Source: Rhodothermales bacterium (lineage in GTDB: Bacteria; Bacteroidota; Rhodothermia; Rhodothermales; VXPQ01). From it: a DNA stretch of 10,503 nt. Numbering within the stretch: position 1 is the stretch's first letter; the number at the start of each line of letters is the position of its first letter. A program made the position numbers and the translations under genes. A model generated the notes under the pieces. The model did not search any database, was not told where the DNA came from, and saw only the letters and a program-made list of their open reading frames with translations. Location: assembly GCA_040904565.1 (NCBI GenBank), contig JBBDTI010000011.1, forward strand, positions 14,849 through 25,351, written 5' to 3'. Of this stretch, positions 201 through 9,660 are shown in pieces.

Positions 201-2396
201 TCACGGCGTCTCGACCGGCAATGAGAAGGCGACGTAGCCGGGCGTCTGAGGCGCGTCTTCGTTCGATGGAATGTACTGCCTCGGGCCGGGCGCGGAAGCG
301 ACGACGAACTGCCTGCCGTTCACCTGGTAGACGGCGGGGATGTTGTCGCCCAATGCCGGAAGGTCGCCGGCCCAGAGCTCCTCTCCCGTCTCGCTGTCGT
401 AGGCGCGCAGCTTCGTCCCGGTAATCTGGAAGATGAGTCCACCCGCCGTCACGGCCGGACCCCCACGCAACCACGCGGCCGAACCGGTATCGTCGATTCC
501 CTGCGCCGCCAGTTCCGGGTCGTCACCGATCGGAGCCTGCCACTTGATGCTTCCGTCGTTCAGATCGTAGGCCGTCAGGCGGAACCAGGGCGGCTTCGCG
601 AGCGGGCGGCCCTTGCTGTCAAGAATATGGACCCATCCGCTCTGGTAGCGCGTCTCGGGATTCGGCAGCCGGGTGGGATCTTCCTGCTCCTGCTGCGACG
701 CACCCTCCGTGAGCGCGAGGTCGGGGTTCGTAAGAAACATTTGAAGGTCGTTGTACTCCGCCTGGCTGAGCTGTGGGAAGGGAGGCATCTGGCCTCGCCC
801 GCCTCGTATGACGTTTTCGAGCTGGCCGTGGCTCAGGCGGTTCGTCACGCCTCGCAGCGACGCGATGCCGCTGGTGACGTTGCCTTCCAGATTGCCACCG
901 TGACAGATCTGGCAGTACTGCTGGTATACACCTTGCCCCCTGTCGATCGGCGAAGCACCGGTCCCCGTCGCACCCGTGGTGATGGGCTGCAGGTCCAGCA
1001 CGGAAGGCATGTTATAGCTGAGCACGTAGAACGTGCCGTCACGCGGATCTCCCGCCGTCGAACCGAAATTCGCGCCGCCCCGATTCCCCGGCACCTGCAG
1101 GGTCGGTTGCGTGTCGGGAGGTGTATAGATCCCCTTGTAGAGCATACCGCGCACGGCCTCCACGATCGAGTCGCGTTCGGAAGCTTCGAGATACGGATTG
1201 AGATCGGTTTCAAGATCGAAGGACTGCGGGATGAAAGGCTCGGGATGGGTCGAAAACGGCTGCGTCGGCCACGCCTGCTCACCGGGCATGTCGGACTCCG
1301 GAACCGGGCGCTCCTCGATCGGCCAGAGCGGCTCGCCGGTCACTCGATCGAAGACGAACACCATCCCGGTCTTCGTCGCCTGCGCGACGATATCCTTCAT
1401 CTCACCTTCGTGCTCTACGGTCAGGAGTACGGGCGTGGCGGTAAGATCGTAGTCCCACAGGTCGTGATGTATCGTCTGAAAATGCCAGAGGTGCTCACCC
1501 GTGCGTGCGTCCAGCGCGACGAGGGAATTGGCGAAAAGGTTCTCGCCGTGGCGGTCGACGCCGTAAAAGTCGTAGTTCGCCGAGCCCAGCGGGACGTAGA
1601 CGATGCCGCGTTCGTAATCCACGCTCATCCCTCCCCAGGAATTAGCTCCTCCCGCTCTCGGGTTATCGTTGTCCGAGCGTCCCTCGGGCCACGTATCGTA
1701 GCCGAATTCGCCGGGCTGCGGCAGCGTATGGAAGATCCACTCCTGCTCTCCCGTCCGCACGTTGAAGGCACGGATGTGTCCGGGTGACGCCACGTACCCT
1801 TCACCCGGGGCCGACCCAAGAACGACGAGGTCCTCCCAGACGACGCCGGGTGTGGCGTTGGTCGTACTCGTTACCATGGAAGGCTCGACGCCGAGACCGG
1901 ACCGCAAGTCGACGATACCGTCATCGCCGAATGACGTCACGGCGTCGCCCGCAACCGCATCGACGGCAATCAGGTGATAGGTACCCTTGAACGAGAGGAC
2001 GCGTCGGTCGGACCGGTCCGCGCTCCCCCAGTACATGAGCCCGTGCGTCCGGATACCGCCGTCGGCTTCGCTGCGGTGCCTCCACAATTCCCGACCCGTA
2101 GCTGCGTGGAGGGCGGCGATCTCCCCGTCGCCGGCGATGACGTACATGAACGAGTCGACGACGATCGGATTGATATCGCTTACACCGTCGTCCGAGAACG
2201 TCCACGCGACCTCGAGCCGATCCACGTTCGAACGGTCGATCTGGTCGTGCATGGAAAAGCTCGTGGCGTGCGGACCGCCCTCATAGCGTGTCCACGTCAA
2301 GAATTGATTTATCGGATCGGTCGGTCCGGGCTCGGGTGAGGCACAGGCCGAGAGCAGGCCGGCTGCGCAGAGGATGAGAACGGAAAATCGGATCAT
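201..2396 (-). CDS. PQQ-dependent (glucose/quinate dehydrogenase-like) beta-propeller dehydrogenase lipoprotein with inserted class I cytochrome c, paralog 1 (731 aa)
   Basis: Start placed at MIRFSVLILCAAGLLSA|C (lipobox LSAC) rather than at 2651. PQQ-propeller W motifs (ALHAATGRELW, AFNVRTGEQEW, ALDARTGEHLW, VFDRVTGEPLW, AYDLNDGSIKW, AYDSETGEELW), HHDLWDYD, ATKTG, GANSWGG, PTQP, KPPW and GGPAVTAGGLIF. Heme motif CQICH at 900-914, with distal Met in GRGQMPPF. Confidence 0.92.
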   Translation of the reverse strand: MIRFSVLILCAAGLLSACASPEPGPTDPINQFLTWTRYEGGPHATSFSMHDQIDRSNVDRLEVAWTFSDDGVSDINPIVVDSFMYVIAGDGEIAALHAATGRELWRHRSEADGGIRTHGLMYWGSADRSDRRVLSFKGTYHLIAVDAVAGDAVTSFGDDGIVDLRSGLGVEPSMVTSTTNATPGVVWEDLVVLGSAPGEGYVASPGHIRAFNVRTGEQEWIFHTLPQPGEFGYDTWPEGRSDNDNPRAGGANSWGGMSVDYERGIVYVPLGSANYDFYGVDRHGENLFANSLVALDARTGEHLWHFQTIHHDLWDYDLTATPVLLTVEHEGEMKDIVAQATKTGMVFVFDRVTGEPLWPIEERPVPESDMPGEQAWPTQPFSTHPEPFIPQSFDLETDLNPYLEASERDSIVEAVRGMLYKGIYTPPDTQPTLQVPGNRGGANFGSTAGDPRDGTFYVLSYNMPSVLDLQPITTGATGTGASPIDRGQGVYQQYCQICHGGNLEGNVTSGIASLRGVTNRLSHGQLENVIRGGRGQMPPFPQLSQAEYNDLQMFLTNPDLALTEGASQQEQEDPTRLPNPETRYQSGWVHILDSKGRPLAKPPWFRLTAYDLNDGSIKWQAPIGDDPELAAQGIDDTGSAAWLRGGPAVTAGGLIFQITGTKLRAYDSETGEELWAGDLPALGDNIPAVYQVNGRQFVVASAPGPRQYIPSNEDAPQTPGYVAFSLPVETP

Positions 2397-2456: not shown

Positions 2457-2520
2457 ATGATACCGGAAGTGCGCCACGTCTTCGAGAGCGGATCTTTCGA
2501 AGAACGTGTACGATTTTTCG
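2457..2520 (-). promoter_or_regulatory. Putative AraC-activated sigma70-type promoter of dehydrogenase paralog 1
   Basis: On the minus strand CGAAAAATCG (2520-2511) and CGAAAGATCC (2499-2490) are direct repeats exactly 21 bp apart. They are followed by a weak -35 TCGAAG (2485-2480), a 17-bp spacer and -10 TATCAT (2462-2457). The same architecture recurs at 8995-9058. Confidence 0.6.
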
Positions 2521-7968: not shown

Positions 7969-8766
7969 TCAGCCGAGGCGCGCCAGCTCGATGTCCTTGA
8001 AGCGAAATCGGAACACCTGTCCGTTGTGCACCTCGATCGCGATATGGCCATTCGGCTGAATCAGATCGCCACCGTCCCAGTCGATAATCTGCTTGCCGTT
8101 CAGGACGGATGTAACGCGCGAGCCTTCGACGCGCATCTCGAGCAGGTTCCAGGGATCCTCGTCGGTACTCCATTTATACTCCCAGCCCTCAGGAAGGTAC
8201 GGCTCGAACAGATCCGACGAGTACCCCTGGATGCCGTAGGGCGGCAGCCAGCCTTCCTCGAAGTCCCATATAAAGCCCGTGGACTCCGGCACGTTGGAAG
8301 CCAGGTCGAAGCCGTGTCGGCCATACCACTGGTCGTCCGGCCAGACATCTCGGAACTGCACGCCGCAATTGCCGCGAGCGTCCTGATACGCGATGAATTT
8401 GAGACGGAGTACGTAATCGGTCAGCTCTTCTTCGAAGGTCAGCCAGGCAAACTCTTCGGTGCCGGGCGTGTCCAGTATGAGCTCGCCGTCCTCGATCGTA
8501 AACAGCTCGAGGTCCTCATCCGCCTCGATACGATCGATCCGCCAGCCGTCGAGATTCTCTCCGTTAAAGATGCGCTCGAACTCGAGATCATCGTAGCCGA
8601 AGTCCGTGTACGTAGACGTCGACGTAGACGTCGACGTCGAACATCCTGATACCGACAGCAGTGCGGCACAGCAAAGGATGGTGAATGCCTTTACGATACA
8701 GCGCGAAAAGACGTGGGCGGAGCCCGTCGAGAAGGCGTCTTGCGATGAGCACATGCGAAGCTTCAT
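7969..8766 (-). CDS. DUF1080 family (3-keto-glycoside lyase/hydrolase-like) lipoprotein; start uncertain (8808, 8766 or 8754)
   Basis: IFNGENLDGW, FTIEDGELI, DYVLRLKF, GNCGVQFR, WNLLEMRVEGSRVTSVLNG, GHIAIEVH and RFKDIEL are DUF1080 signature segments. Hydrophobic stretch AFTILCCAALLSVSG|C ends in a lipobox, followed by a Ser/Thr linker. Confidence 0.88.
   Translation of the reverse strand: MKLRMCSSQDAFSTGSAHVFSRCIVKAFTILCCAALLSVSGCSTSTSTSTSTYTDFGYDDLEFERIFNGENLDGWRIDRIEADEDLELFTIEDGELILDTPGTEEFAWLTFEEELTDYVLRLKFIAYQDARGNCGVQFRDVWPDDQWYGRHGFDLASNVPESTGFIWDFEEGWLPPYGIQGYSSDLFEPYLPEGWEYKWSTDEDPWNLLEMRVEGSRVTSVLNGKQIIDWDGGDLIQPNGHIAIEVHNGQVFRFRFKDIELARLG
8611..8640. repeat. In-frame hexamer tandem repeat (5 units, cgt[a/c]ga) encoding (Ser-Thr)5 right after the lipoprotein Cys
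   Basis: cgtaga cgtcga cgtaga cgtcga cgtcga at 8611-8640; translates to C-STSTSTSTST. Confidence 0.9.
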
Positions 8767-8994
8767 GATCGATATGACATTGAATGAGGGATAAACGGGG
8801 ACCGTCATGGCATGATGTGGGCCCCATACATTCTGGGCCTCAATATATGGTCCAGAAGCCGCTCTCGACAGTTGTCTTCAACAGGAGTCTCTGACGCTCG
8901 TCTGGAAATCGCGGACGAGCCCGGCCATCCGTGATCGCGGGACGTCCGACGCGTCACGCGCACGGCCATCCACTGATGTTGAGCAATGCTTAAC

Positions 8995-9058
8995 ACGATA
9001 CCCACGGGGCGGCCCGAATTCGAGAGCCTTTCTTTTTCTCTGAGTGGAGTATTTTTCG
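8995..9058 (-). promoter_or_regulatory. Putative AraC-activated promoter of the DUF1080 / DUF1080-VCBS unit
   Basis: Aligns without gaps to 2457-2520 at 40/64 positions: CGAAAAAT..T.CAC........AAAGA...GCTCTCGAA ... GGTATC(G/A)T. The -10-like TATCGT is at 9000-8995. Confidence 0.6.
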
Positions 9059-9150: not shown

Positions 9151-9660
9151 CTACTGGTTGGGCTCCAGGTGAGCGCCGAAGAATTGCACGACGATCTTCC
9201 CGTCGCGCACGACGAATCCATCCACCCCATAGTGATAGATGTTGTCGGGTGTCTCGGCGACCCAACTGTAGTAACCGTAGTTGCCCACGTAATGCTCGTC
9301 CGTGAGCTCGAACGTAACACCCTCCTGTCCCCATTCGACGAAGAACTGCTCGAAAGCAGCACGGAGTTCCTCGTGGCCCCTGAGCGGACCGTTCGGCGTA
9401 AACAAAACGGCGTCTTCGGCATAGTCGGCAACGATGCCCTCCAAATCGCCCCCACCGAAGCGGTCGAGATGACGAAGCACAACCTCACGAGTCTCCTCTA
9501 CGGGCCCGTTACTCGAGACGACCGTCGGACCCGTAGCAGCCTCGTCGGTAGCTTCGCTCCCGCATCCCGCCGCGAACACGGCGGCCGAAAGCAGAAGAAA
9601 CAGGGGGATGCAGCGGCTTTGTCTTACCATATTCTGTCTTACAGTACGCCGTATACTCAT
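9151..9660 (-). CDS. SnoaL-like / NTF2-fold lipoprotein (alternative start 9630)
   Basis: Signal IPLFLLLSAAVFAAG|C (lipobox). SnoaL-type pattern VVLRHLDRFGGGDLEGIVADYAEDAVLFTPNGPLRGHEELRAAFEQFF ... GVDGFVVRDGKIV. Confidence 0.88.
   Translation of the reverse strand: MSIRRTVRQNMVRQSRCIPLFLLLSAAVFAAGCGSEATDEAATGPTVVSSNGPVEETREVVLRHLDRFGGGDLEGIVADYAEDAVLFTPNGPLRGHEELRAAFEQFFVEWGQEGVTFELTDEHYVGNYGYYSWVAETPDNIYHYGVDGFVVRDGKIVVQFFGAHLEPNQ

Follow-up and report, generated by a model that had tools for sequence, protein, structure and literature searches.

A window of 10,503 nucleotides (nt) from a Rhodothermales bacterium (contig JBBDTI010000011.1, positions 14,849 to 25,351; "the window" is this whole stretch, C11:14849-25351 of the genome that we call G000) contains two 64-bp intergenic sites, site A (minus strand, 2520-2457) and site B (minus strand, 9058-8995), which share a real, conserved control sequence. 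Site A separates the gene for an AraC/XylS-family regulator from the gene for a pyrroloquinoline quinone (PQQ) dehydrogenase, and site B precedes a unit of DUF1080, DUF1080/FG-GAP and PQQ dehydrogenase genes. A third copy stands on another contig, and the same blocks recur in a different family of the order, beside the orthologous regulator gene. We consider it likely that the three sites are copies of one activator-dependent promoter, probably bound by the adjacent AraC-family protein, which would thereby turn on a few genes for oxidation in the periplasm.

Two sites in the window share an element with sharp edges

A preliminary description of the window had quoted the two 64-mers as agreeing, without gaps, at 40/64 positions; the minus-strand letters at both places are exact, and we reproduced the count. 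Identity outside the 64 bp, in the same register, is 2/30 upstream and 15/46 downstream, and because it falls at once to background the match has sharp edges. The intergenic regions that hold the sites are 233 and 342 nt long, and 40 is their best ungapped 64-nt match. After 300 dinucleotide-preserving shuffles of both regions the best match averaged 30.8 (sd 1.44, maximum 39), with 40 or more reached in 0/300. When site B was slid along the full genome on both strands (95 contigs, 4,020,002 bases), the top non-self match was site A (40), followed by 35, and the same scan with site A gave non-self matches of 41 (C14:31968, minus strand), 40 (site B), 38 and 36. The pattern GAAA.AT.{14,16}AAAGA occurs three times genome-wide, at site A, site B and the C14 site. 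Since it is confined to these sites, the element is not the dispersed genome-wide repeat that the preliminary description had asked about; an intergenic repeat of the repetitive extragenic palindromic or miniature inverted-repeat transposable element kind was rejected, with three copies in 4.02 Mb, each upstream of PQQ-dehydrogenase or DUF1080 genes.

That the similarity arose by chance, or is the eroding remnant of a duplication in which paralogous genes were copied with their upstream DNA, seems to us extremely improbable. The cluster is indeed rich in paralogues (four PQQ dehydrogenases and several DUF1080/FG-GAP genes), and one of the 300 shuffles reached 39/64, but none reached 40, no similarity extends into the leaders or coding regions, the genes behind sites A and B belong to different families, and the same blocks, with different spacers, are kept in another family of the order.

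The third site was found as the best genome match of site A (41/64) before any model was built. It is intergenic, lying between a gene for an exported Gfo/Idh/MocA oxidoreductase and a gene for a 613-aa DUF1080 + FG-GAP protein, which is followed in turn by an SMP-30/gluconolactonase-like gene. Its orientation is correct, and the distance from the end of its TAATAT to the start codon of the DUF1080/FG-GAP gene is 53 nt, against 60 nt from the putative -10 of site A to the ATG at 2396 of PQQ dehydrogenase 1. Being on a different contig, the C14 site is unlinked to the AraC gene.

The element is conserved beside the regulator gene in a sister genus

The preliminary description had proposed looking for the motif in orthologous loci. 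Orthologues of the AraC-family regulator occur in three other genomes of the order (G129, G130 and G131), and all three have an in-register site directly downstream of the AraC gene, 15 to ~105 nt past its stop codon and before a PQQ dehydrogenase gene. The operon behind the site in G129 and G130, the two genomes in which its order could be seen (the G131 contig stops at the site locus), consists of a PQQ dehydrogenase gene, two DUF1080/FG-GAP genes and a second PQQ dehydrogenase gene. Between the two lineages the boxes are kept while the flanks and internal spacers differ, which is the pattern of a phylogenetic footprint.

A sequence-only covariance model built from eight sites, R1, was searched against the four AraC genomes. 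It gave 11 full-length matches of 42.9-66.2 bits, two of them being one G131 locus, and two partial matches (26.2 and 20.5 bits), with all else at or below 19 bits; in the genome of the window the three sites scored 45-57 bits and all else at most 15.8 bits. The G131 locus that was matched twice consists of two contig ends (G131:C255:35-105 and G131:C542:3700-3770) that agree in both the site and its flanks, most likely an assembly overlap and hence one copy. Four sites lay outside the R1 training set: G129:C43:32443 (42.9 bits), G131:C332:4971 (46.2 bits), G130:C3:4967 (26.2 bits) and G131:C332:5798 (20.5 bits). Each is in register, with TAnnnT at positions 59-64, and lies upstream of oxidoreductase-type or DUF1080/FG-GAP genes. 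Behind the additional sites are genes for a short-chain dehydrogenase/reductase (SDR) and then an aldehyde dehydrogenase in G129 and G130 (in G131 the SDR alone was examined), a UPF0261 protein (G130), a CoxG-like protein (G131) and a DUF1080/FG-GAP protein (G130:C3). Of the proteins compared, this G130:C3 protein matches the C14 protein best (58%), and both genes carry the site; the 645-aa DUF1080/FG-GAP protein of the window likewise has its best matches, among those compared, in the motif operons of G129 and G130 (65% and 64%). Two target genes, one of them unlinked to the regulator, therefore keep the site in both lineages.

The motif follows the regulator

We ran a 29-nt pattern, CGAAARAT-N4-CA-N10-AARAW, over 285 genomes of the order. 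It matched nine times in the four AraC genomes and once each in 13/281 others; the reversed pattern, used as a control over the same genomes, matched eight times. The two groups of matches differ in what follows the pattern: CG at 37-38, GTA at 58-60 and T at 64 are all present in 9/9 matches from AraC genomes, while more than one of these three is present in 0/13 of the others, several of which are within open reading frames. R1 (E<=1e-3), searched against 151 genomes of the order, gave strong matches in 4/4 genomes with an AraC orthologue versus 0/147 without one, among which there was a single weak partial match (21.8 bits). Applied to relatives without the AraC gene, R1 also found no site at any of 29 PQQ-dehydrogenase loci, including those of the closest homologues (66% and 64% identity), and simple regular expressions applied to 30 PQQ-dehydrogenase loci recovered the organism's own site only. 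Given the 4/4 versus 0/147 genomes and the absence of matches from the 29 AraC-less loci, the motif follows the regulator and not simply PQQ-dehydrogenase genes.

The element is a tandem direct repeat in front of a putative -10

The 12 distinct sites align without gaps, with the consensus CGAAAaATCCtCCAa.gaCt.ccAAAGATtccCtCTCGtAGgggtGga.gcC.cccgGTATtAT. The best-conserved columns are 1-8, 13-14, 24-29, 35-38, 58-60 and 64, and the spacers are variable; in the eight-site alignment C1, G2, A3, A4, A5, A7, T8, C13, A14, A25, A26, A28, C37, G38, G58, T59, A60 and T64 are invariant. When the 12-site profile is compared with itself, the score is highest at an offset of 21 (9.61; offset 22 comes second with 4.97), so the element is a tandem direct repeat with the unit AAARAT-N3-C. 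This agrees with the two A-rich boxes 21 bp apart of the preliminary description: AAARAT cores are at 3-8 and 24-29 in 12/12 sites. The repeats are direct, not inverted, with a fuller unit of about nGAAARAT-N3-C(C/A)A; repeat 1 occupies positions 1-14 and repeat 2 positions 22-38. About one helical turn past the A-rich core, the first copy has CCA or ACA, and the second copy has C(T/A)CTCG. Among the blocks originally proposed, the A-rich boxes and GTAnnnT persist across the 12 sites, whereas TnCAC shrinks to C followed by A or C, and GCTCTCGAA shrinks to CTCG, whose CG is invariant in the eight aligned sites. The geometry is fixed in 12/12 sites: repeat 2 ends at position 38, and a spacer of ~20 bp separates it from GTAnnnT at 58-64.

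No Rfam family matched in the window (E<=1), and RNAalifold found 0 pairs in the eight-site alignment; from these results we conclude that the constraint acts on DNA, and a cis-regulatory RNA leader, which would have been expected to bring an Rfam match or conserved pairing, was discarded.

The hexamers at positions 59-64 are TATCAT, TATCGT, TAATAT, TATTAT, TACTAT, TATACT, TACCAT and TATGTT, always preceded by G. We take them as the putative -10; if they correspond to -12 to -7, the repeats would lie at about -70 to -34 from the presumed start of transcription. With the -10 predicted only in this way, the would-be -35 hexamers (36-41) of sites A and B are TCGAAG or TCGAAT, which match TTGACA at 3/6 positions; CCGCAG, TCGGAG, TCGTGC and others take their place elsewhere, and no site has a good -35. 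In keeping with this, a generic sigma-70-type promoter scan called neither site A nor site B.

Upstream of 34 tRNA genes of this organism, inspection by eye found TATCTTG, TAGCTTG, TATTTTG or TACTTTG at several, often with TTG ~20 nt farther upstream, an arrangement that looks like a Bacteroidota-style -33/-7 promoter.

A site of this kind could in principle be read without a dedicated activator, if the blocks were recognition elements of an alternative sigma factor of the extracytoplasmic function (ECF) type and the A-rich boxes were UP-like. The string GCTCTCGAA-N16-GGTATC in sites A and B does look like a two-block promoter. However, CTCG alone of its first block survives the 12-site comparison, conservation is strongest far upstream (1-8 and 24-29) and has a period of 21 bp, for which a sigma factor would not account, the TAnnnT hexamers resemble primary-sigma elements and not the CGTC-like -10 of ECF promoters, and there is no sigma/anti-sigma pair among the annotated neighbours. 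We therefore regard an ECF-type promoter as very unlikely.

The regulator is an uncharacterised AraC-family protein of narrow distribution

The 293-aa regulator combines an N-terminal cupin (AraC_binding, PF02311, 2.8e-08) with an AraC-type double helix-turn-helix (PF12833, 4.9e-25; PF00165, 2.5e-17). Used as a query against the genome, it recovered no other stand-alone AraC-type protein; four further matches are helix-turn-helix domains within open frames of 613-1536 aa. Its best NCBIfam matches, HpaA, RhaR, AraC and RhaS, score 69.5-77.6 bits against curated cut-offs of 208-525 (HpaA, at the top, 77.6 bits against 274.65), and since every score is under its cut-off the protein is an equivalog of none of them. 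In the PDB, its best matches extend over the DNA-binding domain alone.

Searches for orthologues returned none in the 60 nearest relatives (E<=1e-20), none in 18 genomes of the organism's own family and none in 400 genomes sampled across the phylum (E<=1e-30). Among 285 genomes of the order, three of the 284 others have one, at 70-75% identity; these are G129, G130 and G131, all three genomes of one genus (g73) in a different family. Peptide-pattern scans for close relatives in genome and metagenome contigs gave distant matches only (24-27% identity). A collection of 5.8 billion proteins added 16 further orthologue clusters at 61-83% identity, the named ones coming from metagenome-assembled genomes of Rhodothermales, after which identity drops to <=45%. 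The orthologue was thus found in none of the 18 genomes of the organism's own family but in all three of one genus elsewhere, and this patchy distribution suggests that regulator and sites travelled jointly by horizontal transfer. An alignment of the four AraC orthologues shows hardly any variation in either helix-turn-helix segment or in much of the cupin, which fits a conserved site and a conserved ligand.

We see no indication of the sugar inducer that the preliminary description had envisaged: among relatives of the regulator, the nearest ones with a label are of the HpaA/PobR type, and SDR, aldehyde dehydrogenase and CoxG genes belong to the sister regulon. The inducer may instead come from the alcohols, aldehydes or aromatic compounds, since the next-nearest homologues (those at <=45% identity) bear the automatic label "activator of pobA".

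The sites could be real shared operators that are bound by another transcription factor, encoded elsewhere. What leaves room for this is that we infer the binding of the AraC-family protein to this DNA, that the co-occurrence comes from two lineages only and that the C14 site is unlinked to the AraC gene. Nevertheless, the site is directly downstream of the AraC gene in 4/4 genomes, direct repeats 21 bp apart suit a dimeric double-helix-turn-helix AraC protein and not the palindromes read by most families, the annotated neighbours in the G000, G129 and G130 clusters include no other regulator gene, and the search of the genome with this protein yielded no second stand-alone member of the family. 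We think another factor unlikely, although it is the most plausible of the alternatives considered here.

A model for activation

We propose that, when ligand is present, the AraC-family protein occupies the two repeats, set 21 bp apart, as a dimer with a subunit on each; the two helix-turn-helix motifs of a subunit would contact the A-rich core and, one helical turn beyond it, the C-rich sub-box. The proximal repeat would run into the poor -35, GTAnnnT at 58-64 would serve as the -10, and the ligand-bound dimer would recruit RNA polymerase to a promoter that has no usable -35, as AraC, RhaS and XylS do. The predicted regulon in this organism has three units: PQQ dehydrogenase 1 (site A); the DUF1080, DUF1080/FG-GAP and PQQ dehydrogenase 2 genes (site B), possibly with readthrough into the AraC gene; and the unlinked DUF1080/FG-GAP gene on C14 followed by the SMP-30/gluconolactonase-like gene. 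The evidence thus supports the inference of the preliminary description that one regulator co-activates dehydrogenase 1 and the DUF1080 unit. The gap between the DUF1080/FG-GAP gene and PQQ dehydrogenase 2 is 72 nt and that between PQQ dehydrogenase 2 and the AraC gene 108 nt, and a generic sigma-70/terminator scan predicted no terminator-like site in the gaps of this unit. Because the 108-nt gap has no predicted terminator, the AraC-family protein may raise its own expression.

The same protein might bind the same repeats but obstruct the -35 region, so that it mainly represses or works as a dual regulator switched by its ligand. In favour of this are the overlap of the proximal repeat with the presumed -35 and the behaviour of some AraC-family members, which are repressors when no ligand is bound. 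Yet no site has a good -35 and the sigma-70-type scan calls neither A nor B, so the unaided promoter would be weak, with little to repress; moreover, -70 to -34 is the classic position of an activator. We judge predominant repression to be improbable, and somewhat more so than binding by a different factor.

Several points weigh against activation by the AraC-family protein as proposed here. Repeat 2 of site B is degenerate (AAAAAGAA), and the ~190-230 nt from site B to the start codon of the DUF1080 gene is long for a simple promoter. The sites fit the tRNA element TAnnTTG just in part, and a promoter consensus for Rhodothermales is not established, so both the -10 assignment and the -70 to -34 geometry are things that we infer. 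The four AraC genomes represent two lineages, the organism's genus and g73, so that the co-occurrence of motif and regulator amounts to two independent observations, and it would be seen equally for any other gene restricted to these clusters. Lastly, the 29-nt pattern and R1 were derived from the same genomes, so that their presence there is partly by construction, and the 151-genome scan with R1 used stricter first-look filters, with which weak matches can be lost.

Relation to known systems

AraC at I1-I2, RhaS and XylS bind direct repeats ~21 bp apart, the proximal repeat overlapping the -35, and at the Pm promoter XylS uses two tandem repeats, each with a pair of sub-boxes spaced by about one helical turn; the proximal of these repeats lies over the -35. 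The well-supported reading of the design described here is that of a textbook class II AraC/XylS promoter, with its tandem repeat at the presumed -35. The likeness to AraC at araBAD (I1-I2) and to RhaS/RhaR at the rhamnose promoters of Escherichia coli includes an N-terminal cupin-type ligand domain with a C-terminal double helix-turn-helix, repeats ~21 bp apart and a proximal repeat that would reach a weak -35, and RhaR, AraC and RhaS are among the sub-cut-off NCBIfam matches of the regulator. We know of no resemblance between the repeat GAAARAT-N3-CCA and the AraC or RhaS sites of E. coli. Unlike the E. coli AraC system, there is no sign here of a distal looping site, and in place of sugar kinases and isomerases of the cytoplasm the predicted targets are PQQ dehydrogenases of the periplasm and DUF1080/FG-GAP proteins. 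Compared with XylS at Pm of the TOL plasmid, the tandem repeats with sub-boxes and the presumed placement of the proximal repeat are alike and the box sequences differ. The HpaA/PobR-type regulators of aromatic acid catabolism are brought to mind by the top NCBIfam match and the "activator of pobA" labels, but no aromatic ring-cleavage genes were seen among the annotated regulon genes.

To our knowledge, regulation in Rhodothermales is almost unexplored, and the abundant PQQ quinohemoprotein dehydrogenases and DUF1080/FG-GAP proteins of the order have no assigned substrates. New here are a narrowly distributed, uncharacterised regulator, a host order with unstudied regulation, and PQQ dehydrogenases and DUF1080/FG-GAP proteins as targets. 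Among the matches listed by literature searches on DUF1080, PQQ, AraC and FG-GAP and on Rhodothermus marinus promoters, the titles and abstracts describe neither the regulator, the motif and the regulon nor a Rhodothermales consensus.

For the targets there is a parallel in Bacteroides thetaiotaomicron, whose DUF1080 protein BT2157 hydrolyses 3-keto-trehalose and works with periplasmic dehydrogenases (PMC8121099). In the BT2156-BT2160 3-keto-glycoside pathway a DUF1080 protein is encoded and regulated with such dehydrogenases, as it appears to be here. A further likeness is the Gfo/Idh/MocA oxidoreductase gene just upstream of the C14 site. By contrast, the partners here are PQQ quinohemoprotein dehydrogenases, and the majority of the DUF1080 domains occur as fusions with FG-GAP repeats. 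Because BT2157 works with periplasmic dehydrogenases, an oxidise-then-cleave pathway for the PQQ dehydrogenase/DUF1080 genes is a reasonable guess, though no more than that. More speculatively, the motif may mark a self-contained catabolic module specific to Rhodothermales, in which regulator, sites, PQQ dehydrogenases and DUF1080/FG-GAP genes have moved together, as one unit, between families of the order, and in which PQQ enzymes, instead of Gfo/Idh/MocA glycoside 3-dehydrogenases, would oxidise the substrate in the periplasm and so feed DUF1080-type hydrolases or lyases. We hold this broader proposal to be possible but less likely than not; if it is true, the module would give the very common, functionally unassigned DUF1080/FG-GAP proteins a pathway partner, together with an inducible promoter for substrate finding.

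The value of these observations is in annotation and access to function, not in mechanism. The conserved operator of ~64 bp makes a testable regulator-to-site pair and a ready reporter for inducer screens, and hence for the pathway substrate. The regulon list ties PQQ dehydrogenases to DUF1080/FG-GAP proteins, to which the sister genus adds SDR, aldehyde dehydrogenase, UPF0261 and CoxG/molybdoenzyme genes.

Genes of the window and the surrounding cluster

The open reading frame (ORF) map and Pfam place every gene of the window on the minus strand, in the order of Table 1.

Table 1. Genes and promoter elements of the window in order of transcription (window coordinates)
Feature	Position	Strand	Remarks
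Xylose-isomerase-like TIM-barrel protein	runs open at window end	-	first in transcription order
SnoaL-like protein	9151-9660	-	upstream of site B
Site B, probable promoter/operator	8995-9058	-	upstream of the DUF1080, DUF1080/FG-GAP, PQQ dehydrogenase 2 unit; 46.6 bits vs R1
Site B repeat 1 core	9058-9051	-	
Site B repeat 2 core AAAAAGAA	9037-9030	-	CTCG at 9024-9021
Site B putative -10, TATCGT	9000-8995	-	
DUF1080 protein (3-keto-disaccharide-hydrolase family)	7969-8808	-	first gene past site B; PF06439
DUF1080 + FG-GAP protein, 645 aa	5936-7873	-	site B unit, gene 2; Pfam
PQQ quinohemoprotein dehydrogenase 2, 747 aa	3620-5863	-	site B unit, gene 3; Pfam, ORF map
AraC/XylS-family regulator, 293 aa	2630-3511	-	PF12833, PF00165, PF02311
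Site A, probable promoter/operator	2457-2520	-	between AraC gene and PQQ dehydrogenase 1; 57 bits vs R1
Site A repeat 1 core CGAAAAAT	2520-2513	-	CA at 2508-2507
Site A repeat 2 core CGAAAGAT	2499-2492	-	CTCG at 2486-2483
Site A putative -10, TATCAT	2462-2457	-	
PQQ quinohemoprotein dehydrogenase 1, 731 aa, lipoprotein-type N-terminus	201-2396	-	site A target; PQQ, Cytochrome_CBB3, PQQ_2

The longest ORF of PQQ dehydrogenase 1 (201-2651, with a GTG start) spans site A and enters the end of the AraC gene. The true start is the ATG at 2396, ahead of the lipoprotein signal, and gene calling by longest ORF would hide the site A promoter. For the DUF1080 gene, the ATG at 8808 gives an odd N-terminus and that at 8766 is followed by a lipobox (LSVSGC); the latter is probably the real start. 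The leader between site B and this gene holds TATATTG at ~8846-8840, and because it resembles the TAnnTTG elements seen before tRNA genes a second promoter within the leader is possible.

The window is part of a larger cluster, G000:C11:10040-28226, which extends it by ~5 kb on the low side and ~3 kb on the high side. This cluster has four PQQ quinohemoprotein dehydrogenase paralogues (59-66% mutual identity), two of them outside the window, interleaved with DUF1080/FG-GAP genes, further examples of which are on either side. Farther out are genes for a flavin adenine dinucleotide (FAD) oxidoreductase, a xylose-isomerase-like TIM protein, gluconate-2-dehydrogenase subunit 3, a GMC oxidoreductase and FG-GAP/UnbV_ASPIC proteins. 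The motif is present in just two upstream regions of the cluster. In the g73 clusters on G129:C43 and G130:C4, the AraC gene is preceded by genes for a major facilitator superfamily transporter of the nucleoside:H+ symporter family, a histidine phosphatase and a molybdoenzyme of the xanthine dehydrogenase type that has FAD and CoxG subunits; the cluster of the window contains none of these. Lastly, a 193-aa ORF with FG-GAP only (G000:C11:14304-14885, reaching into the window at 1-37) ends 4 nt inside the next PQQ-dehydrogenase ORF and, having no DUF1080 domain of the kind seen in its paralogues, may be a truncated copy.

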